A stretch of DNA of 64,000 bases from an uncultured Acidobacteriaceae bacterium. Its GTDB lineage: Bacteria > Acidobacteriota > Terriglobia > Terriglobales > Acidobacteriaceae. The translations under genes were made by a program, and so were the position numbers. Numbering within the stretch: position 1 is the first letter of the stretch; every line of letters begins with the position of its first letter. The notes beneath the pieces are model-generated. The model had not been told where the DNA came from, did no database searches, and saw nothing but the letters and a program-made list of their open reading frames with translations. The stretch spans positions 39,785 to 103,784 of the forward strand of contig CAVYWE010000006.1 of assembly GCA_963772195.1 (NCBI GenBank). Reading direction: 5' to 3'. Below, piece after piece: positions 10,280-56,961 of this stretch.

Positions 10280-11293
10280 ATGCCTAGCGTAATCGCTCTG
10301 GACGCGATGGGGTCCGACAAAGCGCCGAAGCCGGAGATCGAAGGCGCATTGCAGGCGGCGCGCCATCACGGCGTCCGCGTGCTTCTGGTCGGCCCGGGAC
10401 CGCGGCTGAAGGCCGACCTGGCGCGCTATCCCGGGGCGCGGCGGCTGCCGGTTGAAGTGGTTCACGCCAGCGAAGTCATCACCATGGACGACAAAGTGGA
10501 GGCGATCCGCGGCAAGCGCGATTCGTCAATCCGCGTAGGACTGCGACTGGTGCGCGAGGGGCGCGCCGCGGGCTTCGTGACGGCGGGCAATACGGGCGCT
10601 GCCATGGCCACGGCCAAAGTGGTGCTGGGCGCGTTGCCCGGCGTGGATCGTCCGGCGCTGGCGGCGGCGTTTCCCACGGTCCTGAACACGGCGGCCATTC
10701 TGCTTGACGTCGGCGCGAACGTGGATTGCACTCCCGTTAACCTGGAGCAGTTCGCGGTGATGGGCGATATTTATTGCCGTTCGATATTCGGCATGAAGCA
10801 TCCGCGAGTGGGCCTGCTTTCGATCGGAGAAGAAGAAAGCAAAGGCAACGACCTGACCCGCGCCGCGTTTAAACTGCTCAAGCGGCTTCCGATCAACTTT
10901 ATTGGCAATGTGGAAGGCCGCGACTTATATAACGGCGATGTGGACGTGATCGTCGCCGACGGATTCGTCGGTAATGTTGCGTTAAAAACTTCTGAGGGCG
11001 TCGCAAGACTGGTGCGCGCCGTGCTGAAAGAAACCTTGAAGTCGACGATTACGCGGCAGGTCGGCGCGTATCTTTCGCGCAATGCGTTTTCCGATTTCAA
11101 AAAGCGCCTGGATCACACCGAGTATGGCGGCGCGCCGCTGTTGGGCATAAAAGGCGTCTGCATCATCACGCACGGATCGTCGAATACCAATGCCATCAAG
11201 AACGCGGTGCGAGTGGCGGCGGAATTTGCCGAAGGCAAAGTGAACCAAACCATCGAGCGGGAGCTGGCAGAACTGAGCGTGGCTGCGACCTAG
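10280..11293 (+). CDS. plsX: phosphate acyltransferase PlsX
   Basis: [32 protein letters not shown] and GAPLLGIKG are PlsX signature blocks. Confidence 0.95.
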
Positions 11294-11402
11294 GAAGTCA
11301 GAGGTCAGAGATCAGATTGCAGAGGTGAAAACCGCGCGATTGCCGATGGTGTTTGCGCGATGGCTTTGACCTCTGCAATCTGACCTCTAACCTCTGACCT
11401 CG
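11292..11402. repeat. intercistronic long hairpin built from tandem 7-nt units (NTCAGAG type)
   Basis: Left arm gaagtcagaggtcagagatcagattgcagaggtgaaa pairs with right arm tttgacctctgcaatctgacctctaacctctgacctc (about 38 bp, few mismatches). Fills the plsX-fabD gap. Confidence 0.75.
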
Positions 11403-11410
11403 TTCCTAAT

Positions 11411-12379
11411 ATGACAAATAGTTCTTCTCGAATCGCCTTCCTCTTTCCCGGCCAGGGCTCGCAAGCCGTTGGCATGGGCAAAGAGCTGGCCGCCAATTAT
11501 CCGGTTGCGCGCCGAACTTTTGAGGAAGCGGATGAGGCGCTTGGCTTCAAACTATCGCAGCTTTGCTTTGAAGGTCCGGAAGAAAAATTGAAGCTGACCG
11601 AGATCACGCAGCCCGCAATTCTGACAGCGTCGGTGGCGGCGTGGCGCGTGCTGCAGGAAAAAGCTCCGAAGCTAGACTTTATTGCCGGCTATGTTGCCGG
11701 GCACAGCCTGGGCGAATATTCGGCGCACGTGGCCGCGGGTACGCTGGCGTTTGCCGACGCGGTGCGGACGGTTCGTAGTCGCGGTAAGTATATGCAGGAA
11801 GCGGTGCCGGTGGGCGTGGGCGCCATGGCGGCGATTCTTGGAATGACGCTTGACCAGGTCACCGAGATTGCGACCGAAGCAGCGCGCGGAGAAGTTTGTC
11901 AGGCAGCCAATATCAATTCGCCCGAGCAAATCGTGATCTCGGGGCATGCCGGCGCTGTGGACCGCGCCATCAAATTAGCCACCGAACGCGGAGCGAAGAA
12001 GGCCGTGAGCCTGCCGGTCAGCGCTCCTTTCCATTGTTCGCTGATGCAACCGGCGCAGGATCGTCTGGCGGCAGACCTCGGCGCGCTGAATTTTCAGAAT
12101 CCGTCGTGCCCTGTGGTGTGCAACGTTGATGCCGCTGTTGTCGTTTCCGCAGAGGCTTCGCGCGACGCCTTGATTCGCCAGGTCACCGGCGCGGTGAGGT
12201 GGGAGCCGTCGGTGCGGCTGCTGATCGATAAGGGAGCCAGCCTGTTTATCGAAGTCGGCCCAGGAAAAGTTCTGTGGGGACTGATGCGGCAGATCGACCG
12301 CTCGAAGACCTGCGTGACGGTGGGAGATGAGGCGTCCCTGCGGAAGACATTGGCGCAGGTTGCGGCAACGGCAGCGTGA
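11411..12379 (+). CDS. fabD: malonyl-CoA:ACP transacylase
   Basis: FLFPGQGSQAVGMG and the active-site GHSLGEYSA motif. Confidence 0.95.
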   Translation: MTNSSSRIAFLFPGQGSQAVGMGKELAANYPVARRTFEEADEALGFKLSQLCFEGPEEKLKLTEITQPAILTASVAAWRVLQEKAPKLDFIAGYVAGHSLGEYSAHVAAGTLAFADAVRTVRSRGKYMQEAVPVGVGAMAAILGMTLDQVTEIATEAARGEVCQAANINSPEQIVISGHAGAVDRAIKLATERGAKKAVSLPVSAPFHCSLMQPAQDRLAADLGALNFQNPSCPVVCNVDAAVVVSAEASRDALIRQVTGAVRWEPSVRLLIDKGASLFIEVGPGKVLWGLMRQIDRSKTCVTVGDEASLRKTLAQVAATAA

Positions 12380-12387
12380 GATGGTCT

Positions 12388-17438: not shown

Positions 17439-17450
17439 TGAGCAAATGAG

Positions 17451-17516
17451 TAGAGACGGGGCTTGCCCCGTCTCAGGCAGCGCGGCACTGCCGAGACGCG
17501 GCAAGCCGCGTCTCTA
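17451..17516. repeat. GC-rich double hairpin repeat (GTAGAGAC family)
   Basis: tagagacggggcttgccccgtctc ... gagacgcggcaagccgcgtctcta. Two stem-loops whose outer ends also pair. Lies between flgA and flgH. Confidence 0.75.
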
Positions 17517-17572
17517 CCGATGAGAATTCTTGTGAGCATCTGTAGTTAGTAAGTCAACCGAGGAGGACGTAA

Positions 17573-19093: not shown

Positions 19094-19112
19094 CGGAAGT
19101 GAGCCATAGTGT

Positions 19113-19176
19113 GAACTCTGGAAAGAACTAGAGCGAACTATAGGGCGAACTAAAGGGGGAACTACAGAGCGAATTA
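19113..19176. repeat. tandem ~12-nt GAACT-containing repeat (6 units)
   Basis: GAACT recurs at 19113, 19125, 19135, 19147 and 19159, with GAATT at 19171 (gaactagagc gaactatagggc gaactaaagggg gaactacagagc). Confidence 0.6.
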
Positions 19177-19398
19177 TGGATCCGTTGATCACGAACGGGA
19201 TCGAACCGGTGATGCTGCGCGGGTTGGAGAAGCGGGCCGATGAGCGTGACCCGGTGCCCCGGGTGCAAGCGTCCGGCTGTTCGCATGAAAACGGTCGGAG
19301 CAGAGAAAGAATATAAAGAAGGGCCAGGACTCGACATTTCGCGGCACTAACTGGATAACCTGGCTTGATCGCAATAACGATCTAATCTGACGATCTGG

Positions 19399-19441
19399 TC
19401 TGAACTTTGGACACTGAGCTCTGAACTCTGAACTCTTGAAC
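19399..19441. repeat. TCTGAAC 7-nt tandem repeat
   Basis: tctgaac at 19399, then tctgaac tctgaac tcttgaac at 19420..19441, just upstream of the flgN remnant. Confidence 0.5.
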
Positions 19442-19458
19442 GAAGACGCGGTTCTTTT

Positions 19459-19632
19459 ATGGATAACATCGAGACATCGCTTCCCGAACTCAGCAAGCTC
19501 ATCGAGCAGCGGCTCGCGCTGTTGCGCAGCCTGGCGAAGAGTCTGGAGTTCAGCAGCCTGGCGCTGGTGCAAAACGATGCGGAAGCAATCGCGCGCGGCG
19601 CGGCGCATCAGGCAGAGCTCTGCCGGCAATGG
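19459..19632 (+). pseudogene. flgN: FlgN-like chaperone, N-terminal ~58 codons only
   Basis: LPELSKLIEQRLALLRSLAKSLEFSSLALVQNDAEAIARGAAHQAEL fits the FlgN N-terminal helix pattern. After about 19632 the frame reads nonsense over flgL sequence. Confidence 0.5.
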
Positions 19633-22256: not shown

Positions 22257-22301
22257 ACGCTAATTCTACACGACCGCCGCTGCCGGCTGGATTGGGCCCG
22301 C

Positions 22302-22350
22302 GTAGAGACGGGGCTTGCCCCGTCTTGCCTGCCCCGTCACGCGCGGTGAC
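22302..22350. repeat. GC-rich hairpin repeat (GTAGAGAC family)
   Basis: gtagagacggggcttgccccgtct followed by gtcacgcgcggtgac. The first hairpin is identical to the one at 17451. Confidence 0.7.
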
Positions 22351-24608: not shown

Positions 24609-25175
24609 ATGCGCAGTCCAGTCAAAGCAGTTTGCATTCTGGCAATACTTACACTTGGAGCCGCCAGCGCCCTGGCGAAAACTGGCGCTGAGCCTGCCAA
24701 CGACCATGGATCGATCGTAATCGTCTTCAAAGACGGACACCGGCAAAGTCTTCTCGTTGCGGATATCGCACGCATCGAATTCAAGACACCGGTGATCATC
24801 GTTTTCAAAAGTGGACGCGAGCAAAACCTTCCCGCCACAGACATCGCTCGCATCGAATTCGAACCCGCTGGCAGCGCTTCACTGCCCAGCCGCAACCACT
24901 TCGTAGGCAAGTGGGAAGTGGGTGACGGCATGGGAAGCAATTTCTATATCACGCTGGAAGCGGACGGCGAGGCAAAAAAAACGATTGGCGCGAGCCACGG
25001 CACTTGGACCGTGGTTGATGGGGAGGCACGCATCAGTTGGGACGACGGCTGGCATGACGCCATCCGGAAAGTTGGCGCAAAGCACGAGAAGGTCGCCTAT
25101 GAACCCGGCAAATCGTTCACCGATAGCCCGTCCAATGTGACCGCCGCCAGGAATACAGAACCTCAGCCCATTTAA
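24609..25175 (+). CDS. secreted hypothetical protein with internal duplication
   Basis: ATG 24609 follows GAGGAG. Signal peptide MRSPVKAVCILAILTLGAASALA. Two ~24-aa repeats (IVIVFKDGHRQSLLVADIARIEFK / VIIVFKSGREQNLPATDIARIEFE). The upstream part of the track ORF is rejected. Confidence 0.65.
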   Translation: MRSPVKAVCILAILTLGAASALAKTGAEPANDHGSIVIVFKDGHRQSLLVADIARIEFKTPVIIVFKSGREQNLPATDIARIEFEPAGSASLPSRNHFVGKWEVGDGMGSNFYITLEADGEAKKTIGASHGTWTVVDGEARISWDDGWHDAIRKVGAKHEKVAYEPGKSFTDSPSNVTAARNTEPQPI

Positions 25176-25218
25176 CCGTCTTCAGGGGATTTCGCTGAGA
25201 GTTGCGTCCCTATTTCCC

Positions 25219-25270
25219 GTAGAGACGCGGCTTGCCGCGTCTCCCCCCGCGAAGACGGAAGCACCGTCTC
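25219..25270. repeat. GC-rich hairpin repeat (GTAGAGAC family)
   Basis: gtagagacgcggcttgccgcgtctc followed by agacggaagcaccgtct, between convergent genes. Confidence 0.7.
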
Positions 25271-25288
25271 CGCCTCTTTCTCTTTATC

Positions 25289-26260
25289 TTATCCTTCCCA
25301 AACAAACGCGTCGAACACTCTCGTAGATTCATAGCCGATGCGTTTATAGAGCGCAATAGCGCGGTCGTTGGCTTCCGTCACCGTCAGCGAGATGAAATGG
25401 AATCCCCTGTCCCGGAGATTTCTGGTCGAAGCCGCCAGCATGGCTTCGCCAAGCCCGGCGGAGCGGTGTTCGGGCAGCACGCAGACCTGAGTGATGTGGC
25501 CTACATCGGGACGCACCCGCGAGCAGAGGATCAGGCCGGTCAGGGTTTGAGTGCGGCGCTCCAGAACAACAAAGGATGCCTGGGGATCGAAGGTGCCGCA
25601 TCCGGGGAAGCGCACGATGTTGTTCAAGAAACGCAGCGAGCCGGTGAGGGTGCGGTACTGATCGTTAATTTCGGAATCGACGTGTCCACGGTACGCGGCG
25701 GTGATCAAGGCAGCGGCGGACTGGTATTCCTGCTCCGACCAGGGACGAATTTCAAACTGGGGTGGAAGCGTCGGTAGCGAAGTCTGCGGATGCTTGCCAA
25801 TATCGAAATTCATGAAGACACGGGAATGGCGGCTGAAGCCCTGTTGCAGAAAGGGGCGCGAGACTTCTCCAGTGTGGTGCGCCAGCAACTGCGCCTCCAC
25901 GCGATGGATTCCAGGCGACTGCTGCAGGGTTTCGATGACGTGGGTGAGCAGGCGTTCTTCGACCTCGTGCCGGTCGGGACCACGGGCTCCGTCGCGGGCT
26001 CCGTCGCGGACCGAGTCGCGGACGAAGAGGTCGCCGATGACGCCCTTATTCTGCTCGTACACAAAAAAGGAGTAGCCGAAAATGCTGCCGCGCTCGATGG
26101 CGGCATAACCGGGGAGAATTTTCGCGTCCATGTAGCGCAGGATCATCTCGGCGGAGGTGGCGTAGTCCCAGGAAAGCGCGCGGCCCCACATGGAGATCTC
26201 ATCTTCCAGCAACGGTCGAAGGTCGGCGGAAGAGAAGTGTCGAAGATCGAGAATTTCCAT
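25289..26260 (-). CDS. GNAT-family N-acetyltransferase (two-lobed)
   Basis: C-terminal acetyl-CoA site context VCVLPEHRSAGLGEAMLAAS...LTVTEANDRAIALYKRIGY. The N-terminal half is also GNAT-like. Confidence 0.8.
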   Translation of the reverse strand: MEILDLRHFSSADLRPLLEDEISMWGRALSWDYATSAEMILRYMDAKILPGYAAIERGSIFGYSFFVYEQNKGVIGDLFVRDSVRDGARDGARGPDRHEVEERLLTHVIETLQQSPGIHRVEAQLLAHHTGEVSRPFLQQGFSRHSRVFMNFDIGKHPQTSLPTLPPQFEIRPWSEQEYQSAAALITAAYRGHVDSEINDQYRTLTGSLRFLNNIVRFPGCGTFDPQASFVVLERRTQTLTGLILCSRVRPDVGHITQVCVLPEHRSAGLGEAMLAASTRNLRDRGFHFISLTVTEANDRAIALYKRIGYESTRVFDAFVWEG

Positions 26261-26266
26261 AAAAGA

Positions 26267-26374
26267 AGGTCTTAGGTCTTAGGTCTCAGGAAAAATCCGA
26301 GCGCAAATTCTACTACCAGTTTTAGAGTCTGGCGTCTGGCGCCTGAGACCTGCGACCTGACACCTGAGACCTTT
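26267..26374. repeat. intercistronic long hairpin built from 7-nt units (TCTYAGG type)
   Basis: Left arm aaggtcttaggtcttaggtctcagg. Right arm cctgagacctgcgacctgacacctgagacctt. Lies between the GT39 stop and the GNAT start. Confidence 0.7.
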
Positions 26375-26375
26375 C

Positions 26376-28013
26376 TTATCTTCCCACCCAGTACAACTCC
26401 AACTTCTGTGCCGGAATGCTGGTTAAGTATGACACTCGGCGCCCGGGAACCAGCCGGGCGACTTGGGATTGCGTCCCTTGTGCGGCAACCAGTACATGAT
26501 CTGCAGCCGGGATATTCCCTTCCTCGTATTTTTCTGCCGGACGATTGAGGTAAAACTCCAGACCGTATTCCTGCACACGATTTACGTGGAAGAGGGCGAT
26601 GGGGACCGGTTCGCGCGAAAACGCCTGAATGCTTTCGGCAATGGGGCGCGCGGATTGGGTAGCGTCGATGATGGGCGCGGCGAAACGAATGATGGCGGCT
26701 ACGCTTACGACGACGGCGAACATGGTGACGCGGCTCAGCAAGCGAAGTCCAGCGCGGGACAGGACCGCAGCGGTGACGCCGATCGCAAATACGGCGGCAA
26801 AGACGGCGGCGGAGTAGGTTCTGATTCCCCAGGAAAAGTGGCGATTTATTGCGATGGAAGCGGCGGAAAGAGAAGCGGAAAGAGCGGTAAAAATCAGCAG
26901 TCCGCAGAGAACTCCATGAGCGGCGGCGAACAGAGGCGAAAGCTTTTTGTCGTCACCGCGGCCGGCTTCATTGCGGCGAGCAGAGAGATATTCGACGACC
27001 AGGAGCGCTGCGGCCGGGATGGAAGGCAGAATATAGCCGGGCAGCTTGGATTGCGATGCGCTGAAAAACAGGACGGGCACAAGCATCCAGATGAAAAGAA
27101 ATAACGGCCATGAATCTTCCGGACTGGAGAAAGCCTGTTTGCCTTCTGACCAGATCAGGCGAGCGCGTTCGACCATGGCGAAGATGAGCACGATCGTCCA
27201 TGGCATCATGGCCAGCAAGAACACGGGCAGGTAGAACCAGAAAGGCTGGCGGTGGTGATACAGGTCCTGCGAGAAGCGCGCAAGATTATGTTCGAGGATG
27301 AAGACACGGAAGAATTCCGGGTTGCGCAGTTGGACGGCGATGTACCAGGGCAACATCACGGCGAGGTAGAGGACGATGCCGGGGATCCAGAGAGTGCGCG
27401 GAATGGCACGCCAGTCACGCTTTACAGCGACAAAGAGAAAAATGATGACAGCGGCGAGCGCGGGCGCGACCGGGCCTTTAGCTAAGGTTCCGAGCGCAAG
27501 AAAAATATAGAAAGCGGCGAGATAGACCCGCGTGCGACTTTCGTACCACGCGTACCAGCCGACCAATGCCATGGCGAAAGTGGCGGCGAGCGGCATGTCG
27601 GTCGCAGCGGCACGCGCAAATCCAATGACGGCCGCGCAACTGGCCGTGATGAGGGCGCCGTCGAGTTCGCTGCCTGGTCGAAACCGGCGGAGGAAGAAGT
27701 AGATCGCAGCGATGAGCATGGCGGCATCGAACGCGGCGGGCAGTCGGGCGGCCTGGTCGGTGATGCCGAAGGCACGGAACGCCAGCATCGCCTGCCAGTA
27801 ATAGAGCACCGGCTTTTCAAGCCACGGTTTGCCTTGCAGGGTTGGCGTAACCCAATCCGAGCGGTCCAGCATTTCGCGCGCCACTTGCGCGTAGCGGGGT
27901 TCATCGGCGCCGACCAGGCCGAAGGCCCCGAGGCCATAGAAAAAAAGGAATCCGCAGAACGCCGCGAGCAGCAACAGGTCGGTGCGGGTGCGTGGATTTG
28001 TTCCTTGAGTCAT
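26376..28013 (-). CDS. glycosyltransferase family 39 (ArnT/PMT-like) membrane protein
   Basis: GADEPRYAQVAREMLDRSDWVTPTLQGKPWLEKPVLYYW is the ArnT/PMT_2 N-terminal loop motif. At least 10 TM helices. Confidence 0.85.
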   Translation of the reverse strand: MTQGTNPRTRTDLLLLAAFCGFLFFYGLGAFGLVGADEPRYAQVAREMLDRSDWVTPTLQGKPWLEKPVLYYWQAMLAFRAFGITDQAARLPAAFDAAMLIAAIYFFLRRFRPGSELDGALITASCAAVIGFARAAATDMPLAATFAMALVGWYAWYESRTRVYLAAFYIFLALGTLAKGPVAPALAAVIIFLFVAVKRDWRAIPRTLWIPGIVLYLAVMLPWYIAVQLRNPEFFRVFILEHNLARFSQDLYHHRQPFWFYLPVFLLAMMPWTIVLIFAMVERARLIWSEGKQAFSSPEDSWPLFLFIWMLVPVLFFSASQSKLPGYILPSIPAAALLVVEYLSARRNEAGRGDDKKLSPLFAAAHGVLCGLLIFTALSASLSAASIAINRHFSWGIRTYSAAVFAAVFAIGVTAAVLSRAGLRLLSRVTMFAVVVSVAAIIRFAAPIIDATQSARPIAESIQAFSREPVPIALFHVNRVQEYGLEFYLNRPAEKYEEGNIPAADHVLVAAQGTQSQVARLVPGRRVSYLTSIPAQKLELYWVGR

Positions 28014-28016
28014 TTG

Positions 28017-28097
28017 CCGTTAGTTGGTCGCCAGGACTGCATGCTCGTTTCAGCTTCGCGAACAACTATCGACCAACGACTAACGACCAACGACTGG
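28017..28097. repeat. hairpin with 7-nt tandem units (CGACYAA type)
   Basis: Right arm cgaccaa cgactaa cgaccaa cgactgg. Left arm ccgttagttggtcg pairs with part of it. Lies between the nrnA stop and the GT39 start. Confidence 0.5.
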
Positions 28098-28118
28098 TTG
28101 ATCAGTTCGCGTTCAAGA

Positions 28119-29060
28119 CTACAGGTGCAGCCGATCCACAATCCGCGACACGGCGACGTCTAGAGGTCCTTCGAGCGAGCAGCCGCTAGCGCATTTGTGA
28201 CCGCCGCCGCCGAAATGCTCGGCCACGGCCGAGACATTCACTTCTCCTTTGCTGCGGAGACTGACGCGGCAGCGCTGATCGGGAAGTTCACGAAAGAAGA
28301 TGGCGACCTGCACGTCGGCTATGGAGAGCGCGTAGTTGACCAAGCCCTCGCAATCTTCTTCACGAGCGCCGAAGCGCTGCATCTGTTCCTGCGTGACCCA
28401 GATCCAGGCCAGCGGACCTTCGCGATGCAGGTTGGAGAGCGCTGCGCCAAGCAGCCGAAGTTTGGCCGTGGAATGTCCGAAATAAATGTGACGCGCACAG
28501 TGCGCGGGGTCAGCCCCGGCAAGCACGAGTTCGCGCGCGACGGTGAAAGTGTGCTCGTTGGTCCCTTCGAACATGAAGGAGCCAGTATCAGTCATGAGCG
28601 CGGTGTAGAGGCAGGTGGCAATGTCGCGATCGACCGGAACGCAGGCGAGCCGGGCCAAACGATAAACCAGCTCGGCGGTGGCCATCACCGTGGAATCGAT
28701 CCAGTTAATGTGGGCGAAATTGCGGCCGCTCACGTGATGGTCAATATTGATGAGAAAACATTCTTCGAGCCCCTCGAGCAGCGTGCGCCTGATGCTGTCG
28801 CATTCGAGCAGGATGACGGCGCCGTCCCCGGGGAAGTCCGCGGGGACCGTGTCGGACTGAATGACGCGATCGGCGAAAGGAAGGTTTTGGTAGATACGAG
28901 GAACGCCATCGTGCATGACGACTTCGGCGTCCTTGCCCATGATGCGCAGAATCTGGCCACAAGCCAGGGCAGAGCCGATGCCATCCCCGTCGGGCCGGGC
29001 GTGCGAGGTCACCACGAAGCGGTGACGCGCGCGAATTTCTTGTAGAACCCGTTCTAGCAT
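28119..29060 (-). CDS. nrnA: DHH/DHHA1 phosphoesterase NrnA (oligoribonuclease/pAp phosphatase)
   Basis: HARPDGDGIGSALA (DHH motif I/II), NIDHH, and the DHHA1 GGGGHKCASG. Confidence 0.85.
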   Translation of the reverse strand: MLERVLQEIRARHRFVVTSHARPDGDGIGSALACGQILRIMGKDAEVVMHDGVPRIYQNLPFADRVIQSDTVPADFPGDGAVILLECDSIRRTLLEGLEECFLINIDHHVSGRNFAHINWIDSTVMATAELVYRLARLACVPVDRDIATCLYTALMTDTGSFMFEGTNEHTFTVARELVLAGADPAHCARHIYFGHSTAKLRLLGAALSNLHREGPLAWIWVTQEQMQRFGAREEDCEGLVNYALSIADVQVAIFFRELPDQRCRVSLRSKGEVNVSAVAEHFGGGGHKCASGCSLEGPLDVAVSRIVDRLHL

Positions 29061-29076
29061 GAGGTGCTCTGCTCTC

Positions 29077-29156
29077 GAGTTCTCAGTTCCGGTTCTCAGT
29101 TCTCAGTCAAGAACGCCAAGCACTTACTGAGAACTGAGAACCGAGAACTGAGAACT
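29077..29156. repeat. intercistronic long hairpin built from 7-nt units (CTGAGAA type)
   Basis: gagttctcagttccggttctcagttctcagt / 18-nt loop / actgagaactgagaaccgagaactgagaact. Lies between the rbfA stop and the nrnA start. Confidence 0.8.
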
Positions 29157-29160
29157 ATTT

Positions 29161-29544
29161 TTATGGGCTCGGCTCAGCATCCTTCCGTTTACGTTTTTTG
29201 GCGCGGCCAAGAAGCTCGTCCACCCGGCTCTCCAATTCATCGGCACGATCAATCTGGAAATAAAGTTCCGGAGGCCGCCGCAAACGCAGCCGTTCCGCGA
29301 GTTCATGCCGGACATAGTTCTTGGCCGCGGAAAGCCCTTCGAGCGTCCGCTCCGCCTCGGCCTCATCGCCGGCAACGCTAACCATGATGCGGGCAGAACG
29401 CGCGTCCTGCGCCATAAGCACGGCGCTGACACTGGCCAAGCCAATGCGGGGATCCCGGAGTTCCCCTTCGAGGATAGTTTCAATCTCTTCGCGGATGGCC
29501 TCGCTCAGCCGTCCGCGATGATATTTCTGGCCACGATGCTCCAC
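29161..29544 (-). CDS. rbfA: ribosome-binding factor A
   Basis: RLSEAIREEIETILEGELRDPRIG...VSAVLMAQDARSARIMV...LRLRRPPELYFQID is the RbfA KH-like signature. GTG start. Confidence 0.9.
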   Translation of the reverse strand: MEHRGQKYHRGRLSEAIREEIETILEGELRDPRIGLASVSAVLMAQDARSARIMVSVAGDEAEAERTLEGLSAAKNYVRHELAERLRLRRPPELYFQIDRADELESRVDELLGRAKKRKRKDAEPSP

Positions 29545-29634
29545 GGCGCACCTCGAATGGAGGAAAACTCGTAAGGATATCAGAAAGAAAGGTTCGAGGA
29601 ACTGGCTCGTAGCTCGCAGCCTACTTATTCGCCT

Positions 29635-29922
29635 TCACAGGAACTCCACGAACGAGTCCGTGACTTCGGCGCCGGCGTTGTTGGCGATGCGTGTAGCAGC
29701 GCGTTCTACGTTTTTCATCAGCCCGTCAAGGTAGTCGCGCGAGTGCGAGACGCTCACCACGCCAATCGTCGCCTGATTCCAAAGAAGACTAGGATCTAGT
29801 TCGGCGACAGCGACATTGAACGACGAGCGGAGGCGATCTTTGAGACTACGTGTAACCTGACGCTTGTCCTTGAGTGAGTGCGCCGCTTCGATCCGGAGTT
29901 CGAGAGTAAGGAAAGCAATCAT
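29635..29922 (-). CDS. DUF503 (YlxP-like) protein
   Basis: LTLELRIEAAHSLKDKRQVTRSLKDRLRSSFNVAVAEL matches DUF503. Usual position upstream of rbfA. Start is probably ATG 29922 (the track start is 29949). Confidence 0.8.
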   Translation of the reverse strand: MIAFLTLELRIEAAHSLKDKRQVTRSLKDRLRSSFNVAVAELDPSLLWNQATIGVVSVSHSRDYLDGLMKNVERAATRIANNAGAEVTDSFVEFL

Positions 29923-29974
29923 GGGAATATATACGGTAGCCCAAAACAAGTTGTGTCAGAGCAGCAAGTCACGC

Positions 29975-30018
29975 GTAGGGACAGCCGCCCCCGGCAGTCC
30001 AGCCGAGCACAGCTCGGC
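29975..30018. repeat. GC-rich hairpin repeat (GTAGGGAC variant)
   Basis: gtagggacagccgcccccggcagtcc followed by gccgagcacagctcggc. The second stem is nearly identical to the one at 60790. Confidence 0.6.
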
Positions 30019-30265
30019 GCCCCGCAGGAATGCAGCCCGGGAACCGACCTCAACTCATTGATCCACAATGACTTATCGGATGCCGCCAAGCCGCTCATCG
30101 CCTCTGCACGAAATTTAGAGCATTTTCCCCGCTCCTCGTGCTACACTAGAAGTCGCTAAGTTTGACTCACAAGCAGTTGAAGGTCGGTATCGCCAACCAG
30201 CGTCACCCCCTCTACAGCAGCGAATCTTCTCAGCACATTTCAAGAAACAAGAAAAAGGAACATCA

Positions 30266-30469
30266 ATGGCAGAACAAGGAACAGTGAAGTGGTTTAACGA
30301 CGCCAAAGGCTATGGTTTCATCAGCCGTCAAAATGGCGAAGACGTTTTCGTGCATTTCTCCGCTATTCAAGCTGGCGGCTTCAAGAGCCTGCAAGAAGGC
30401 CAAACCGTGCAGTTCGACGTGACCAAGGGCCCAAAAGGCTGGCAAGCGGAGAACGTTACTGCTGTCTAG
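30266..30469 (+). CDS. cspA: cold-shock protein (CspA family)
   Basis: [15 protein letters not shown] (RNP1) and VFVHFSAI (RNP2). 67 aa. Confidence 0.95.
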
Positions 30470-36686: not shown

Positions 36687-36878
36687 AGAGTCAGCTTTCT
36701 GCTCTTCTGAACTTGCGCGGCGCGATCGTAGTGCGACGGGGACCGCAACCGCTACGGTGAGGCCAAGTGTCTATGTCTATTGTCCCAGAAAGCGGGCCGG
36801 ATGGGGAGTAGGCCAGTAAGTCTATATTTGTCAATAGATTGCGGGAGAACTATCCCCGGCTCGTGTTGGGGCGGGCGT

Positions 36879-36922
36879 GTGGGGACGGGCGCCTCGCCCG
36901 TCCAAGTTGAGCGAAGCTCAAC
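36879..36922. repeat. GC-rich hairpin repeat (GTGGGGAC variant)
   Basis: gtggggacgggcgcctcgcccgtcc followed by gttgagcgaagctcaac. Confidence 0.6.
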
Positions 36923-36944
36923 AGCGCCGCCGGCGCCGCACAAC

Positions 36945-39900
36945 CTAGCGTCTGCGAGCGAGCGCGAACAAAAGCGCCGCTCCAGTTGCGATGCCAGCCA
37001 CGGCGAGACCAGTTCGCTTCATGTTCTTTTCGATGGCTGCCCGGTGCGGCCGCACCCAGGCGTCTTCGGGATAGTGCTGCGGCGCGGGGTCGAACATCGG
37101 GAAGCCTTCCGGCGTTTCGGTGGCCTCGCGCAAAGCCATCTGGAGAACTTCGGCGAGGTGAAGCGCGTGGCGATCGGTTTCCTGCGCGATCTGCTCGCGG
37201 CAACTGAAACCGTCGGCGACGATGAGCCAGTCGGTGGGAGCCTGACGGACGGCGGGCAGAAGTTCGAGTTCGCCAATGGCTTTCGAAATCTCGTATTTGT
37301 CCTTCTCGAAGCCGAACGCTCCGGCCATGCCGCAGCATCCGGGAGCGGGAGCGGTAAAATTGACGCCCATGCGCTTGAGGACCGACTCTTCGGCAGTCAT
37401 CTTCATGATGGCCTTGTGATGGCAATGCCCGTGGATAAGCGCCCGGCGCGGCAGTTTGGGCAGCGGGAAATTCTTTGCGCGCTGTTCGAGAAATTCGCTG
37501 AGCAGAAAGACTTGCTTCGAGAGGGCTTGCGCACGTTCGTCCTTGGGGAAAAGGTTAGTGAGTTCGTCGCGAAAAACGGCGGCGCAACTGGGTTCCAGAA
37601 CAACGATGGGCGTTGCGGGTCCAATTTCGGGGAGAAGCTCGTCCATGATCTGGAGGAGCAAGCTTTTGGCGCGGTCAAGCATGCCAACGTCATAAAGCGG
37701 ACGACCGCAGCAGAGGTGAGCGCGCGGGACGGTGACGTCGAAGCCCGCGGCCTCGAGGACTTCGACGGCAGCCTTGGCGGTCGAGGGGAGGAAGTGGTTA
37801 TTGAAAGTGTCAGCCAAAAGCAGCACGGAGTTGCCACGACTAACGTGGGGACGGCCGCCCTCGGCTGTCCCGCGAAGCGAAGCTCCGCGGCGCTCCCACC
37901 ACTGTTTAAATGTCTGCGGCGCAAACGCCGGAATGCGCCGCTGGGCGGGGATTCTCGCGGCTATCTTCGCGAGGTCGCGCAGCCCTGGCAGTTGGGTCGT
38001 AAGATTCACGAGCCCCGGCGCATGCGAAGCCGCTCTCGCCCACAAATCAATATTCGAAAAGGCCAGCGCATTCAGCGGACGCCGATTCATCTCGTAGTAG
38101 TGCGACAGAAATTCCGCCTTGTAGGTCGCGACATCGACGCCCACAGGGCAATCGCTTTTGCAGCCTTTGCAGGCGAGGCACAGGTCGAGCGATTCTTTCA
38201 CGGCTTCGTTCTGCCACCCGTCTTTGATGACGTCGCCTTTCGTCATCTCCCAGAGCAGATGGGCGCGGCCGCGGGTCGAGTGCTCTTCGTCGCGCGTGAC
38301 GCGGAAGCTCGGACACATGACTCCGCCTTCGTCGCGGCGGCACTTGCCCACTCCGACGCAGCGCAGCGTAGCAGCGGCCAGGCTGCCGTGGTCGTCGGGA
38401 AATTTGAAATGCGTCTCGGGCTGCCAGGGATCGTAGCCGGGACCAAGGCGCAGATTTTCATCGAGGCGATAAGGCTCGATAAGCTTGCCCGGGTTCATTT
38501 TCCAATCGGGATCCCAGAGCGATTTGAACTCGCGGAAGGCCTGCATAATCTCAGGCCCAAACATTTTGGGAAGAAGCTCGGCGCGGGCCTGGCCGTCTCC
38601 ATGTTCGCCGGAGAGCGAGCCACCGTAGCGGACCACGAGATCGGCGGCCTCCTCCATGAACTGGCGAAACTTGCGGACGCCCTCGGTGGATTCGAGATCG
38701 TAGTCCATGCGGGTGTGCACGCAGGCGTGGCCGAAGTGGCCGTAGAACGAACCTTCGTAATGGAAAGCTTGCATCAGCCGGCGCAGATCGCGCAGATAAG
38801 CACCGAGTTTTTCGGGCGCGACCGCGGAATCTTCGAAGCCTTCCCAGCGCAGCGGTTCGCCGGGAACGTGCGAAGTTACGCCCAGACTGGACTCGCGGAC
38901 GTCCCAGATGCGCCGGGCTTGTTTCTGGTCGGTGAACAGCCGCAGGTTGGGAGGGGCCGCGGAGCGATCAAGCGCCTCCATCAGATTGCGCGCCTGCGAT
39001 TCGGCTTCAGCGGCGGTTTTGGCTCCGAACTCCGCCATCAGCCAGCCACCGCCTTCCGGCAGCAGGGCGAGACCTTCGAGGTTCACGCCTTTGCGGCGGC
39101 TCGCGTCGACCATAATGTCGTCAAAACCTTCGAGGCCGATGGGGTGGTGCTCCATGATCTGCGGGACGTGGTCGGCGCAAAGATAAATATCGGGCCATCC
39201 GATAACGAGCAACACCCGCGACGGCGGGCTCTCGACAAGGCGGCAGGTGGCTTCGAGAACCGTGACGCAAGTACCTTCGGACCCAACCAGCGCGCGCGCC
39301 ACGTGAAAGCCGCTTTCGGGGAGCAGGTGGTTGAGGTTATATCCGGAAACGCGGCGCGGAATGTTCGGGAATTGGCGGCGAACCTGCTCACCGTAGCGGT
39401 CGGCGATGGACTTGAGCCCGGTGTAAATTTCGGCGCGGCGTCCGCCTTCGCGAATGAAGCGGTCGAAATCGTCCGCGCTGGTCGCCCCGACGTGCAGTCG
39501 CTGGCCGCCGTAGGTGAGGACCTCAAGCGACTCGATATTGTCGTCCGTCTTGCCGGCCATGATCGAGTGCACACCGCAGGAGTTGTTGCCGATCATGCCT
39601 CCGAGCGTGCAGCGGTCGTGGGTAGCGGGATCGGGCGCGAAGGTAAGGTGGTGCTTCTCGGCCGCCGCGCGAAGCCTGTCGAGGACGACGCCGGGTTCAA
39701 CGCGCGCGATGCGGCGCGCGGGATCGATCTCGAGGATGCCCGCCATGTACTTCGAAAAGTCGAGGATGACCGCAGCGTTGCAACATTGTCCAGCGAGTGA
39801 CGTGCCTCCGCCGCGTGCGAGGAGCGGAGCGCGGTGGTCGCGGCAGAGGGCAACCGTGGCGAGAACGTCTTCTTTATCGCGTGGAACTACGACTCCGATA

Positions 39901-40058
39901 GGAACTTGGCGGTAATTGGAGCCATCGGTTGCATAGAGAGCCCGGCTGCCCGAGTCGAAGCGGACTTCTCCGCGAAGGTGACGGTAGAGAGAGGCTTCAA
40001 GAGCCGAGGCGTCGAGTTGCGCGGAATGGGCCGGGGGTGGGGCGATGTCTTGCGGCAT
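36945..40058 (-). CDS. FAD-linked oxidase fused to an Fe-S/CCG-domain module (YdiJ-like, D-2-hydroxyacid dehydrogenase type)
   Basis: N-terminal FAD_binding_4 (VVPRDKEDV...RGGGTSLAGQ). Middle 2x[4Fe-4S] motifs (CVGVGKCR, CLACKGCKSDCP). C-terminal CCG repeats (CCGRP, CCGMAG). C-terminal TM anchor. Start set to ATG 40058. Confidence 0.85.
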   Translation of the reverse strand: MPQDIAPPPAHSAQLDASALEASLYRHLRGEVRFDSGSRALYATDGSNYRQVPIGVVVPRDKEDVLATVALCRDHRAPLLARGGGTSLAGQCCNAAVILDFSKYMAGILEIDPARRIARVEPGVVLDRLRAAAEKHHLTFAPDPATHDRCTLGGMIGNNSCGVHSIMAGKTDDNIESLEVLTYGGQRLHVGATSADDFDRFIREGGRRAEIYTGLKSIADRYGEQVRRQFPNIPRRVSGYNLNHLLPESGFHVARALVGSEGTCVTVLEATCRLVESPPSRVLLVIGWPDIYLCADHVPQIMEHHPIGLEGFDDIMVDASRRKGVNLEGLALLPEGGGWLMAEFGAKTAAEAESQARNLMEALDRSAAPPNLRLFTDQKQARRIWDVRESSLGVTSHVPGEPLRWEGFEDSAVAPEKLGAYLRDLRRLMQAFHYEGSFYGHFGHACVHTRMDYDLESTEGVRKFRQFMEEAADLVVRYGGSLSGEHGDGQARAELLPKMFGPEIMQAFREFKSLWDPDWKMNPGKLIEPYRLDENLRLGPGYDPWQPETHFKFPDDHGSLAAATLRCVGVGKCRRDEGGVMCPSFRVTRDEEHSTRGRAHLLWEMTKGDVIKDGWQNEAVKESLDLCLACKGCKSDCPVGVDVATYKAEFLSHYYEMNRRPLNALAFSNIDLWARAASHAPGLVNLTTQLPGLRDLAKIAARIPAQRRIPAFAPQTFKQWWERRGASLRGTAEGGRPHVSRGNSVLLLADTFNNHFLPSTAKAAVEVLEAAGFDVTVPRAHLCCGRPLYDVGMLDRAKSLLLQIMDELLPEIGPATPIVVLEPSCAAVFRDELTNLFPKDERAQALSKQVFLLSEFLEQRAKNFPLPKLPRRALIHGHCHHKAIMKMTAEESVLKRMGVNFTAPAPGCCGMAGAFGFEKDKYEISKAIGELELLPAVRQAPTDWLIVADGFSCREQIAQETDRHALHLAEVLQMALREATETPEGFPMFDPAPQHYPEDAWVRPHRAAIEKNMKRTGLAVAGIATGAALLFALARRR

Positions 40059-40123
40059 AGGGTACGAAACATCTTCGAGGATGCGGGCGTTGGGCGCAAG
40101 GGCGTATCTTGTGTGACGTCGAT

Positions 40124-40204
40124 CTTTCCCCTGTGGCCCTCTGTGTCCCCGGTGGTAAAGACTTTTTCCAACCACCGAGAACACAGAGGGCCACAGGGGG
40201 AAAG
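40124..40204. repeat. intercistronic long hairpin (CACAGRGG type)
   Basis: ctttcccctgtggccctctgtgtccccggtgg / 16-nt loop / ccaccgagaacacagagggccacagggggaaag. About a 30-bp stem. Lies between the cox subunit IV stop and the oxidase start. Confidence 0.8.
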
Positions 40205-40220
40205 CCACACCGAGATGCGA

Positions 40221-40520
40221 TTACCGCCAGGAACGAGTCATGTAGTCCGCCAGCGACAGTATGAGCAGAATTGCGAGAAAGAAGAAGCCGGAGACAACGA
40301 CGGCCCCGGTCAGCTTTTCGCTCGCGCCTTTGACGTGCATGAAGAAAAGGATGACCAGCGTCGCTTTGATGGTGGCGATGAGGAGCGCGACAACCGGGTT
40401 GAAGGGACCGAGGTTCACAAAGGCGACCGCGGCCGTCGTGATAGTCAGGACGAGCAGGGTAATACCGATCGCTATGTAAAAGCCTTGCGAGTGACCAGTG
40501 TGTTCTTCGTGTTCCGACAT
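40221..40520 (-). CDS. ctaF: cytochrome c oxidase subunit IV (prokaryotic CtaF/COX4_pro type)
   Basis: 99 aa with three TM helices. IATIKATLVILFFMHV motif. Last gene of the oxidase operon. Confidence 0.8.
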   Translation of the reverse strand: MSEHEEHTGHSQGFYIAIGITLLVLTITTAAVAFVNLGPFNPVVALLIATIKATLVILFFMHVKGASEKLTGAVVVSGFFFLAILLILSLADYMTRSWR

Positions 40521-40528
40521 AACAGTCC

Positions 40529-41212
40529 TTAAGAGTGCCTGCTAATCAGGTACAACAACGGGAACAGATAAATCCAGATGATATCGACCAAGTGCCAGTA
40601 CAAGCCGGCATTTTCTATGGGCGTGAAGTAACCGGGCGTGTAATGTCCTTTCCATGCCAGGACAGTCAGAACGCTGAACAGGCCGCATCCAATGATCATG
40701 TGCAGGGCGTGCATACCGGTCATGACGAAATAGAGGGAGAAAAAAAGCTCAGCTTCCTTCGGGTTGACCGGGATTTGCTTGCCGTTGTCGTCGAACTTAT
40801 CCGTGAAGTTGAACGTGGCGCCGGGTACGTGATGCTTCTCGAATTTTTCCTTGTACTCGAAACCCTTGATGACGAGGAAGGTCATGCCGAGCAGCACCGT
40901 AACCACGAGGTAGCCGACCAGCACTTTGCGTTTGCCCGCTTCCGCCGCTTTCACCGCCAATACAACCGTAACCGAACTAACGATCAGGACGCCGGTGTTA
41001 GTGGCTCCGAGCCAGATATTGAGCTGCTGGCTTCCGGCCGCGAAGGCGTTGAAGTGGGCGAGGCGATAGATGAGGTAGGCGCAGAACATGCCGCCGAAGA
41101 ACATGATTTCAGTCACCAGGAACAGCCACATGCCAAGCGAGGCGGCGTTCTTCTGTTGCTGAGCGTCGGCGAAGTGGTGGAGCAGCGCCGGATTGTGCGC
41201 TTCGTGTTCCAT
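40529..41212 (-). CDS. ctaE: cytochrome c oxidase subunit III
   Basis: GMWLFLVTEIMFFGGMF and FFSLYFVMTGMHALHMIIG...YWHLVDIIWIYLFPLLY. Start set to ATG 41212, downstream of the ctaD stop. Confidence 0.9.
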   Translation of the reverse strand: MEHEAHNPALLHHFADAQQQKNAASLGMWLFLVTEIMFFGGMFCAYLIYRLAHFNAFAAGSQQLNIWLGATNTGVLIVSSVTVVLAVKAAEAGKRKVLVGYLVVTVLLGMTFLVIKGFEYKEKFEKHHVPGATFNFTDKFDDNGKQIPVNPKEAELFFSLYFVMTGMHALHMIIGCGLFSVLTVLAWKGHYTPGYFTPIENAGLYWHLVDIIWIYLFPLLYLISRHS

Positions 41213-55456: not shown

Positions 55457-55533
55457 GGTTTCAGGTGTCAGGTCTCAGGTGTCAGGAAAACCAAAGACGG
55501 CTCCTTTGTTCCTGACACGCGGGACCTGAGACC
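55457..55533. repeat. intercistronic long hairpin built from 7-nt units (TNTCAGG type)
   Basis: ggtttcaggtgtcaggtctcaggtgtcagg / loop / cctgacacgcgggacctgagacc. Lies between the FAD-oxidoreductase stop and the CMD-gene start. Confidence 0.75.
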
Positions 55534-55541
55534 AGCTTCTC

Positions 55542-56834
55542 TCACGATACCCAGTCTAGAACTTTGTAGTACGCCCCGGCGAACGGCAGAAACCATGGCT
55601 TGCCGTTATACAGCCCGAGCGGCGCGCCGGGGAATGAAATCTCCGTGAATGGGTTATCGGTCTTCCCCCCCGCGATCCACTCCGCCATCTTCAGCCCCTG
55701 CCAGCTCGCCATGGCAACGCCGTGTCCGGCGTATCCGAGCGCGAAATAGATGCCGTCGATCTGTCCCGCGTGCGGCATGATGTCGAAGCAGAAATCGAGC
55801 GTACCGCCCCAAACGTATTCGACTCTGGTATCGCGTAGTTGTGGATAGACGTCGATCATTCCCAGACGTAAAATTTCGGCACTCTTGCGGATAGTCTGAT
55901 CGGTCTCTGGGAAGAACGCGGCGCGCCCGCCGAACAACATGCGGTGGTCGGGGGTGAGGCGATAGTAATAAAGATAGTTCTTGGAATCGTAGATCTGACG
56001 ATTGCGCGGGCTCAATTCTCGAGCCAGCGCTTCGGGAAGAACTTCGGTGGTAATGATAAACGACCCGATAGGAATAATTTTCTTCCGCAGCGCGGGAGTG
56101 GCCGCGCCGGTGTAGCCGCTGGTTCCGACCAGCACATTGCGTGCCCACATCGCGCCACGAGAACTGTTAAGCCTGAAACCCGGCGCACCGTCCCGTGATT
56201 CGCGCTGGATGTTCTGCAGCCGCGTGCGTTCGCAGATCTGAGCGCCGGCGCGCATGGCGGCAGCGCCAAGTCCGGCAACGTAGCGCGCGGGATTGAGGCT
56301 TGCTGAGATTTCGTCGACTATGCCGCCATAATAAATGTCGGAACCGATTTCGCCGCGGAGTTGGTCGCGGGGCACGACGCGCAACTGGTGGTTGAATTCG
56401 CGGGAGATCACTTCAACCTGGCGGGCGTAGTCATCGAAATGGGCCTGCTTGCAAGCGACTTCGAGATGCCCGGTGCGGACGAAATCGCAGGCAATGCTTT
56501 CTTCTTTCACGACGCGCTCGACCGCGTCGATGGTCTCAAGCGAAGCGGCATACATGCGTCGCGTCAGCTCGCGGCCATACTTCGAGATGAGTTGGTTGAC
56601 GCCGAGCTTCAGTCCAGTGAGCACCATGCCGCCGTTGCGCGAACTCGCACCCCATCCGATGGTTTCCGATTCGAGCACGACGACTTTCGCACCACGTTTG
56701 GCGAGTGAGAGCGCCGCGGAGAGTCCCGTGAATCCAGCGCCGATGATGGCAACGTCAGCGCTTTCCGGCAAGGGCTGCGCGGGTGGAGAGGGCATCTGGA
56801 CGGTGGTGAGCCAGTAGTTGAGTTCCTGGGGCAT
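55542..56834 (-). CDS. FAD-dependent oxidoreductase (DAO family, PuuB/OrdL-like amine oxidase)
   Basis: ADVAIIGAGFTGLSAALSLAKRGAKVVVLE dinucleotide fold, then IGWGASSRNGG. Start set to ATG 56834. The track start at 56978 reads through a repeat. Confidence 0.85.
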   Translation of the reverse strand: MPQELNYWLTTVQMPSPPAQPLPESADVAIIGAGFTGLSAALSLAKRGAKVVVLESETIGWGASSRNGGMVLTGLKLGVNQLISKYGRELTRRMYAASLETIDAVERVVKEESIACDFVRTGHLEVACKQAHFDDYARQVEVISREFNHQLRVVPRDQLRGEIGSDIYYGGIVDEISASLNPARYVAGLGAAAMRAGAQICERTRLQNIQRESRDGAPGFRLNSSRGAMWARNVLVGTSGYTGAATPALRKKIIPIGSFIITTEVLPEALARELSPRNRQIYDSKNYLYYYRLTPDHRMLFGGRAAFFPETDQTIRKSAEILRLGMIDVYPQLRDTRVEYVWGGTLDFCFDIMPHAGQIDGIYFALGYAGHGVAMASWQGLKMAEWIAGGKTDNPFTEISFPGAPLGLYNGKPWFLPFAGAYYKVLDWVS

Positions 56835-56846
56835 GTCGTTTGCAAG

Positions 56847-56961
56847 AACCTTGACCACAGGGAGCACAGGGGTACACAGGGGTACACAAGGGAACACAGA
56901 GGAATTCCTAGGTGTCCTCTGTGCGCCTCTGTGTTCCTCTGCGTCCCCTGTGGTTAGGGTT
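56847..56961. repeat. intercistronic long hairpin built from ~10-nt units (CACAGGGGTA type)
   Basis: ccacagggagcacaggggtacacaggggtacacaagggaacacagagg pairs with cctctgtgcgcctctgtgttcctctgcgtcccctgtgg around a gaattcctagg centre. Confidence 0.8.

Follow-up and report, generated by a model that had tools for sequence, protein, structure and literature searches.

Palindromic microsatellites between the genes of Acidobacteriaceae: inverted heptamer arrays that may owe their form to DNA-level events

What are the long hairpins that recur between the genes of a 64,000-nucleotide stretch of DNA from an uncultured Acidobacteriaceae bacterium (GenBank assembly GCA_963772195.1, contig CAVYWE010000006.1, positions 39,785 to 103,784; hereafter the window), and why are their arms built of short tandem repeats? 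An initial annotation had listed eight such loci and suggested for them either an RNA-level role, as intercistronic terminators or attenuators or as processing or stability elements, or a kinship with repetitive extragenic palindromic (REP) sequences and bacterial interspersed mosaic elements (BIMEs). By direct reading of the sequence, with an inverted-repeat finder and with Tandem Repeats Finder (TRF), we recovered all eight inverted tandem-repeat loci at the positions given for them, with the repeat units listed there. They define a class of elements in which a short unique loop is enclosed by a pair of inverted arrays of a 7-nt unit or, less commonly, of one of 8-10 nt. On balance, we favour reading them as 'palindromic microsatellites' that resemble REPs and the short tandemly repeated repetitive (STRR) sequences of cyanobacteria, occur throughout the Acidobacteriaceae/Terriglobales lineage, and would be shaped at the DNA level by slippage and by template switching between the arms, any effects on RNA being secondary.

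Each of the eight loci consists of a series of short direct repeats, a unique spacer and a complementary run. Hairpins of this kind have stems of 25-45 bp and loops of 12-36 nt. The inverted-repeat finder recovers seven of them, with arms of 18-50 nt that are 76-100% complementary, the third locus not being among the 25 pairs that it lists, and TRF finds a period-7 or period-10 array in at least one arm of every locus but the sixth. A detector that couples a TRF array to a local alignment with its inverted partner scores six of the window loci at 26-55, the maximum in ten Markov simulations of the window being 23. At five of the eight loci the TCAG/CTGA core that had been seen in most units takes the form of a 5' arm of NNN+TCAG and a 3' arm of CTGA+NNN. 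Compared with dinucleotide shuffles, loci 1-8 folded as sense-strand RNA give z-scores of -11.2, -3.8, -1.0, -8.9, -4.2, -10.2, -2.3 and -6.8, and folded as DNA -9.6, -4.1, -1.0, -9.3, -6.7, -8.7, -3.9 and -5.1. Seven of the eight hairpins are thus far beyond chance as RNA or DNA folds, and the folding check that had been proposed for the set comes out as expected for these seven but weakly for locus 3.

Pfam confirms that the flanking genes are co-directional in all eight cases. The first hairpin (11294-11401) lies between plsX and fabD on the forward strand, with (AGGTCAG/AGATCAG)n as its 5' arm and (CCTCTGA/CCTCTAA)n as its 3' arm; its stem of about 45 bp, counting an inner stem, takes in the plsX stop codon at its base and ends 3-10 nt before the fabD ATG, and a relative (L012) carries a hairpin with the same unit. 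The others stand between genes of the reverse strand. Hairpin 2 (26267-26372), between a PMT_2 glycosyltransferase and a GNAT acetyltransferase, is made of GGTCTCA/GGTGTCA units (equivalent to GTSTCAG), and its loop contains a fresh 7-nt duplication (CGCCAGA twice, 26327-26345) that is missing from a near-identical strain (L201). Hairpin 3 (28017-28097), between a DHH phosphoesterase and PMT_2, is a CGACYAA array (GTCGTTR five times on the sense strand) whose complementary partner is short; it is a decayed, mostly one-armed copy whose unit number differs among strains. Hairpin 4 (29073-29156), between rbfA and the DHH gene, represents the canonical TTCTCAG family and reads TTCTCAG TTCTCGG TTCTCAG TTCTCAG, then the loop, then CTGAGAA CTGAGAA CCGGAA CTGAGAA. 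Hairpin 5 (34161-34235), between a hypothetical gene and one for an NHL-repeat protein, belongs to the same family and has TTCCCGG as its variant second unit; in these two unrelated gaps 31 nt of arm are common with a single mismatch, the variant second unit included, and the loops are unrelated. Hairpin 6 (40125-40202), between COX4 and an FAD oxidase, has units of about 10 nt of the CACAGRGGNN family, read in the 3' arm of the forward strand, and has a relative at L006:839. Hairpin 7 (55457-55533), between DAO and CMD, returns to the GGTGTCA/GGTCTCA units of the family of hairpin 2 and is invariant in four strains with identical CMD protein. Hairpin 8 (56844-56964), between two DAO genes, comprises five 10-nt units (CACAGGGGTA/CACAGAGGNN) and a complementary arm. 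That such elements create false N-terminal extensions among the open reading frames (ORFs), as had been pointed out, is seen twice: ORF 36945-40208(-) reads ...YHRGHRGPQGK... across hairpin 6 and has its likely true start at 40058, and ORF 55542-56978(-) runs through hairpin 8, with a likely true start at 56834.

The window is no isolated case. With its DHH protein as query we collected 80 syntenic loci, at 71-93% identity, from Acidobacteriaceae/Terriglobales metagenome-assembled genomes (MAGs) of peat, bog and soil (the window itself has a G+C content of 58.5%), and in the 1.40 Mb that they cover we found 127 tandem-arm hairpins, or roughly one every 11 kb, which is the density of the window too; 211 more were detected in 847 kb of soil and peat contigs. 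Since the structures recur in many independent short- and long-read assemblies, an assembly artefact is ruled out. Heptamers prevail, with periods of 7 nt (80 hairpins), 14 nt (14), 8 nt (27), 9 nt (7) and 10 nt (5), so that 94 of 135 hairpins have a period of 7 or 14, and the median total length is 88 nt.

Comparison of orthologous gaps, which the initial annotation had recommended, shows that relatives have or lack the hairpins and that the units differ between species. While the synteny DUF503-rbfA-DHH-PMT_2-GNAT is kept in all loci, the rbfA-to-DHH gap ranges from 6 nt, with no element, to about 400 nt; it is bare in many genomes and holds at least ten different hairpin units in others (TTCTCAG, CTGTCAG, CCATCAG, CTATCAG, TCGTCAG, TCTTCAG, TCATCAG, GTCGTTR and others). 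The PMT_2-to-GNAT gap of close relatives contains either AGGTSTC 7-mers or GGTTTCAA 8-mers, with matching arms in both cases, and in L002, L022, L024 and L040 the 3' arm alone is kept. One-armed arrays such as (GCCAAGA)4 are expansions of local sequence beside the DHH start. Two further kinds of element share these gaps: in L003, L013 and L016 a structured element of about 130 nt (...GGGTCCCTCAGGGGCTAAAGCCC...GGCACGGCTGAAGCCGTGCC...) is nested in the loop of the PMT_2-to-GNAT hairpin, so that a second repeat family appears to use the loops of tandem-arm hairpins as landing sites, and in L001, L003, L005, L007, L009, L013 and L026 a small hairpin family (GGCATCGCTAAAGCGATGCC) directly follows the rbfA stop codon and is itself followed by one-armed heptamer arrays.

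How this turnover proceeds can be read from contigs that encode exactly the RbfA (L201-L210) or the CMD (L211-L214) of the window. Relative to the window, whole units are inserted or deleted at loci 2, 3 and 4 (by 7 nt) and at locus 8 (by 10 nt). Some strains have AAGTGCCTGGCGGTCTTC as the loop of the rbfA-to-DHH hairpin and others GAAGAGCGCCAGGCACTT; as these are reverse complements but for one mismatch, an inversion has turned the loop around between its arms. In L209 the same hairpin has lost its centre by deletion, leaving TAGTTCTCAGTTCTGGGAACTGAGAACT, and in L201 and L208 TTCTGAG is paired with CTCAGAA where other strains have TTCTCAG and CTGAGAA. The arms of locus 8 have diverged at many positions from those of strains with identical CMD, yet they are still complementary (GGACACCGAGGTACACAG with CTGTGTACCTCGGTGTCC). 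Across nine orthologous rbfA-to-DHH hairpins, pairing in a helix of 31 bp amounts to 97.1%, two pairs being changed in both arms, and the covariation score of the alignment is reached by 4 of 500 shuffles. These strain differences are DNA-level events, namely slippage, palindrome-stimulated deletion, and inversion or template switching between the arms, and as such they account for the complementarity of the arms with no need of selection on RNA. The turnover is thus rapid: units come and go singly by slippage, 7-nt duplications newly arise, the loop flips, and the centre or one arm may be deleted, yet through paired changes the arms are still complementary. We infer that this complementarity would be kept up by intrastrand template switching or recombination between the arms and not by selection on the transcript.

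Where the hairpins lie relative to genes might seem to speak for a function in RNA. The initial annotation had emphasised that none occurs in a divergent or convergent gap, and within the window this holds; it is nevertheless uninformative, because 52 gaps are co-directional, 6 convergent and 7 divergent, and 8 of 52 against 0 of the 13 others yields a Fisher p of 0.34, and relatives have hairpins in both of the other gap types. In the related loci, where genes were called by a self-trained dicodon model and starts are approximate, 122 of 130 classifiable hairpins are co-directional, 6 convergent and 2 divergent, and none is inside a gene. Outside four conserved gaps the counts are 60/6/2 (co-directional/convergent/divergent) for an expectation of 48.8/9.9/9.3 (p = 0.007), and among the matches listed for the TTCTCAG family in metagenomes they are 89/5/12 for an expectation of 76.7/13.4/15.9 (p = 0.016), both p values ignoring the orthology of copies. 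A positional bias is thus found, with 84-88% co-directional hairpins versus 72% expected, but it is not absolute; it is modest, and mostly the base rate. The 5' foot lies a median of 3 nt past the upstream stop codon (10th-90th percentile -2 to 18) and the 3' foot a median of 9.5 nt ahead of the predicted start. In relatives without an element the corresponding gaps measure only 6-30 nt, so any insert would adjoin both stop and start codons, and the larger distance on the start side fits the preservation of the ribosome-binding region. The hairpin often provides the upstream stop codon itself (TAG TTCTCAG...), TAG preceding 69 of 122 hairpins versus a background of 37%. As to stop usage in general, over all called genes of the window and loci TAG is the commonest codon (37%), followed by TGA (36%) and TAA (26%). 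In terms of the palindromic-microsatellite reading, the elements may persist where they are harmless, in short operon spacers after a stop codon and before the ribosome-binding region, and would be depleted from divergent gaps, which bear promoters.

The same observations can be turned into an argument that the hairpins are selected RNA cis-elements, which would stabilise the upstream cistron, serve as sites for RNase III, attenuate read-through or couple translation, the tandem-repeat arms being merely a mutational route to long stems. The gaps are in apparent operons and leave no room for promoters, the feet lie close to both codons, and at loci 1 and 2 the base of the stem takes in the stop codon and adjoins the ATG; pairing is kept through double changes, co-directional gaps are enriched, loops show a weak excess of T over A on the sense strand, and similar roles have been proposed for cyanobacterial STRR hairpins such as that of hupS-hupL (PMC2670836). 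A position near the stop codon is, however, what any insert in a spacer of 10-30 nt would show, copies stand in convergent and divergent gaps as well, and the loop is inverted between strains. Bare gaps of 6-30 nt occur at these sites in relatives, along with frequent one-armed remnants and collapsed hairpins. Nor do the structures favour the sense strand: the sense fold is better in 67 hairpins and the antisense fold in 54 (Wilcoxon p = 0.12), with 363 versus 334 G-U pairs. We accordingly regard selection for an RNA element as unlikely.

Among the specific RNA roles, that of an intrinsic terminator is rejected, with no U-tract, a negative terminator scan, and the long stems and large loops given above in place of the short G+C-rich stem and 3-8-nt loop of such terminators. 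In only 18 of 122 and in 2 of 89 hairpins do the 9 nt past the stem contain five T or more, a frequency not above that of A-runs upstream, and a terminator scan of positions 25000-41000 flagged none of hairpins 2-6. At Rfam gathering thresholds no hairpin has a match, a fluoride riboswitch being the sole hit of the window; in E-value mode the hairpins match only models of eukaryotic microRNA precursors, far below threshold and on both strands, which marks them as generic long hairpins. The suggestion of a terminator or attenuator is therefore not supported, whereas the alternative offered with it, a REP- or BIME-like nature, comes closest, the elements being dispersed multi-copy extragenic palindromes. 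As the hairpins sit inside operons, a role in RNA stability, processing or coupling is possible. Once transcribed with the operon, stems of 25-45 bp would act as barriers to exonucleases, provide double-stranded RNA of a length that RNase III can cleave, and juxtapose stop and start codons; the hairpins of the window could in this way block 3' exonucleases, attract RNase III and couple the codons on either side, effects that we would view as by-products.

How the elements came to be in so many gaps is best followed in the TTCTCAG family. A search of metagenomes for a pair of perfect TTCTCAG units followed, after 8-38 nt, by a pair of CTGAGAA units matches at least 120 contigs, and the 121 matches listed, on which the following figures rest, are flanked by protein clusters in at least 78 different pairings. 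Exactly four units make up the 5' arm in 75 of the 121, the variant unit, TTCCC[AG]G, usually being the second from the outside; the commonest 5' arms are TTCTCAG TTCCCAG TTCTCAG TTCTCAG (18), its TTCCCGG version (17) and its TTCTCGG version (7), and 3' arms contain the variants CTGGGAA, CCGGGAA and CCGAGAA. Arm identity between contexts is 85%, in part forced by the search pattern, while loop identity is 46% between contexts, 41% after shuffling and 62% within a context. The two arms have equal unit numbers in only 46 of 121 copies. The GTSTCAG, CGACYAA and CACAGRGG families likewise each occur in several contexts, and the units as a whole form a network of single-base variants of the type NNN+TCAG. 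Their chirality is fixed: in a set of 225 hairpins, 70 combine a 5' arm of TCAG-type units with a 3' arm of CTGA, and the opposite arrangement does not occur. Because inversion of an element leaves this chirality unchanged, it points to common descent or to a shared generating mechanism and not to an orientation-dependent function. As a side effect of the CTGA units, with their period of 7 or 8, stop codons occupy all three frames of both strands in 47 of 225 3' halves and 17 of 225 5' halves.

These distributions bear on the simplest alternative, in which the hairpins are purely local microsatellites, each gap having acquired its own by slippage and inverted duplication, with convergent similarities. 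The fresh duplication of an arbitrary piece of loop at locus 2, the derivation of the one-armed (GCCAAGA)n arrays from sequence beside the DHH ribosome-binding region, the polymorphism of unit number between strains and the over-representation of heptamers among bacterial simple repeats generally (PMC4692102) are all in keeping with it. It is very unlikely, however, to explain why the same four-unit arm with its variant second unit recurs in dozens of unrelated contexts, why loci 4 and 5 agree over 31 nt with one mismatch, or why chirality is 70 to 0, an outcome hardly to be expected from independent origins.

At the other extreme, the hairpins could be non-autonomous mobile elements, recognised through the hairpin and a CnGA/CTGA-type motif by an HuH-Y1 enzyme, such as a REP-associated tyrosine transposase (RAYT) or a class 3 TnpA-Y1, or by another enzyme acting on single-stranded DNA. 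Conserved arm families of about 30 nt in at least 78 contexts, the absolute chirality and the conserved TCAG/CTGA core would be natural consequences, and RAYT-like ORFs do occur in related loci. Direct repeats of 2-6 nt around 120 listed elements are not above a permutation null, and this absence of target-site duplications is what HuH single-strand transposition predicts. A transposed unit should, however, bring its loop with it, and the loops of different copies are unrelated; the TTCTCAG matches listed have no conserved flank or tetranucleotide outside the arms that could serve as a foot; the class 3 structures in the literature have been called weak, which these stems are not; and the window contains no such gene as far as examined. 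From the 2.3 Mb of part-genome loci scanned for a cognate RAYT, two ORFs with an HuH...Y signature emerged, the repeats on either side of both being classical GTGG/GTAG REPs and not tandem-arm hairpins. We therefore find mobilisation by such an enzyme doubtful, though less so than a purely local origin. Somewhat more credible, if still unlikely, is the idea that NNN-TCAG hairpins form a superfamily spread by a mechanism that copies the arms and not the loop, with the TCAG core as a recognition or cleavage motif. Ectopic template switching between dispersed heptamer arrays could do so, as could an unrecognised enzyme specific for hairpins or heptamers, for example one of the class 3 HuH-Y1 proteins of Acidobacteria and Planctomycetes.

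Returning to the palindromic microsatellites that we favour, the elements most likely behave as REP-like "junk or selfish" DNA and not as a dedicated RNA regulator. Several observations weigh against this reading. Family arms that are conserved down to a specific variant unit, around random loops, could reflect purifying selection at the sequence level and hence a function such as that of a binding site, and the TCAG core is kept across the network of unit variants. At gaps such as PMT_2-to-GNAT a hairpin is present in most of the closer relatives, which could indicate selection for structure there and not only descent. The loops of the TTCTCAG family have a weak polarity, with T exceeding A on the sense strand (55 versus 26, p = 0.02), no intermediate of dispersal between sites was seen, and all hairpin counts include orthologous, non-independent copies.

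The window holds other features of a repetitive or structured kind. At 19399-19441 lies a one-armed array of six TCTGAAC units without a convincing inverted partner (the best scores 20, under the null maximum of 23), which is probably a product of the same repeat-generating process that did not become a hairpin. It sits in an unusually long co-directional gap (19094-19628, 535 nt) that also harbours a 12-nt repeat in four copies (19129-19177, TAGAGCGAACTA). At 34724-34907, immediately upstream of where gene 34242-34712(-) has its Shine-Dalgarno sequence and ATG, a 21-nt unit (GAGCGTGCAAAGTGAAACGTA; 21 being 3 x 7) is repeated 8.8 times; as it is single-copy in the near-identical strain L202 and in the relative L001, the expansion is specific to the strain and affects a 5' leader or promoter. 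The fluoride riboswitch (RF01734) maps to 8506-8567 (-) with 61.8 bits, above the gathering threshold, and its 3' end overlaps the predicted start of ORF 8082-8507(-). At 30156-30532 (+) the model of the cspA thermoregulator 5' untranslated region matches below threshold (57.3 bits versus a gathering value of 78, E = 1.7e-12) and overlaps a small cold-shock-domain gene, 30266-30469(+), whose homologue is called CSD in related contigs.

The Acidobacteriaceae are dominant bacteria of soil and peat that are known mostly from MAGs, and in such genomes a repeat found roughly every 10 kb interferes with gene calling, by adding false N-terminal extensions and by changing stop codons, and affects operon prediction and short-read assembly as well. 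Unit number and loop orientation provide hypervariable markers for typing strains with identical flanking proteins. The hairpins also make a natural model for asking how inverted tandem arrays stay complementary and by what means short repeats can spread when no transposition signature is recognisable. If they do act on RNA, hundreds of operons per genome would carry an intercistronic hairpin of 25-45 bp and thereby a large layer of post-transcriptional control; if only their arms are copied, this would be a mode of short-repeat proliferation distinct from the transposition of REP doublets (REPINs) and of MITEs (miniature inverted-repeat transposable elements). We found no published description of such tandem-arm hairpins in Acidobacteria, and what is new compared with known systems is the lineage, the organisation in multiple NNN-TCAG families with fixed chirality, the sharing of arms around unrelated loops, and the documented flipping of the loop.

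Among known systems, the GGGAATC arrays of Xanthomonas are close in design. In each genome 70-75 of them are inverted pairs that stand close together and can form stem-loops; most lie between ORFs of one orientation and very near a stop codon, and the arrays vary in length by species while their type is kept, and are transcribed with no clear role (PMC4692102). The window hairpins resemble these repeats (Rehm et al. 2015) in their inverted heptamer pairs, their co-oriented gaps and their proximity to stop codons. In Xanthomonas, however, a single G-rich, quadruplex-forming unit is used, whereas the units here are diverse and mostly not G-tracts, and quadruplexes are therefore not expected, possibly except in the CACAGGGG 10-mers of loci 6 and 8, the only ones with runs of three or four G. 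Membership of the G-quadruplex heptamer repeats of the Xanthomonas/Nostoc type, with at least four G3 runs on one strand, is rejected, as G3 runs are absent from TTCTCAG, GTSTCAG, AGGTCAG and CGACYAA.

Hairpins made of 7-bp STRR repeats occur in filamentous cyanobacteria, one of them between hupS and hupL, and a part in transcript stability or in translational coupling has been suggested for them (PMC2670836). With them the window hairpins share intergenic tandem 7-bp units and the pairing of inverted arrays between co-transcribed genes, and the architecture is that of heptamer simple-sequence-repeat hairpins, a class to which both belong by construction and not as a homologous family. Homology is unlikely. 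The phylum is another and the units are apparently different, and here we see a many-family network with a TCAG core and fixed chirality, in which one family shows a fixed four-unit arm in at least 78 contexts.

REPINs are inverted doublets of REPs that form a hairpin with a less conserved spacer and are moved by RAYTs, and among REPs and BIMEs there are classic cases that are intercistronic, like the window hairpins (PMC3116915). The two also have in common several extragenic families per genome, inverted doublets and scarcity in divergent gaps, and the TTCTCAG family in particular consists of multi-copy extragenic inverted doublets with a variable spacer. The arm itself is no REP, that is, no imperfect palindrome with a 5' GT[AG]G foot, since it is made of direct heptamer repeats and has no conserved flanking tetranucleotide. 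These genomes also contain classical GTAG/GTGG REPs, which form a system of their own. In the window, a GTAG-footed REPIN-like doublet lies at 17450-17517 (GTAGAGACGGGGCTTGCCCCGTCTC ... GAGACGCGGCAAGCCGCGTCTCTAC) and single REP cores (GACGSGGC..GCCSCGTC) at about 22290-22325, 23156 and 25224; the GTAG family is also found in gaps of the relatives L006, L018, L023 and L009, and the two RAYT-like ORFs (L023 6783-7277(-) and L059 18101-18499(+)) are flanked by GTGG-type REPs. GTAG repeats with tyrosine transposases have been described in Acidobacteria (PMC3733652), as have class 3 HuH-Y1 genes flanked by high-copy 'atypical structures with a CnGA foot' (PMC6006769). Between that foot and the CTGA core of the hairpins there is a resemblance only, judged by description (Quentin et al. 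2018), and no class 3 HuH-Y1 gene was found in the DNA of the related loci that was scanned.

Two other classes are set aside. Dependence on a DDE transposase, as in MITEs, is rejected, there being no target-site duplication above the permutation null. An integron attC site is rejected likewise, as the elements end in 5'-GTTCTCA...TGAGAAC-3', the opposite order to RYYYAAC/GTTRRRY and with pyrimidines at the RRR positions, and the flanking genes are housekeeping genes in conserved synteny. The flipping of the loop, finally, has a parallel in the non-coding DNA of chloroplasts, where loops between short inverted repeats flip recurrently between close lineages. These small inversions are like that of the rbfA-to-DHH hairpin, but they take place between ordinary inverted repeats of an organelle and not, as here, within dispersed tandem families.

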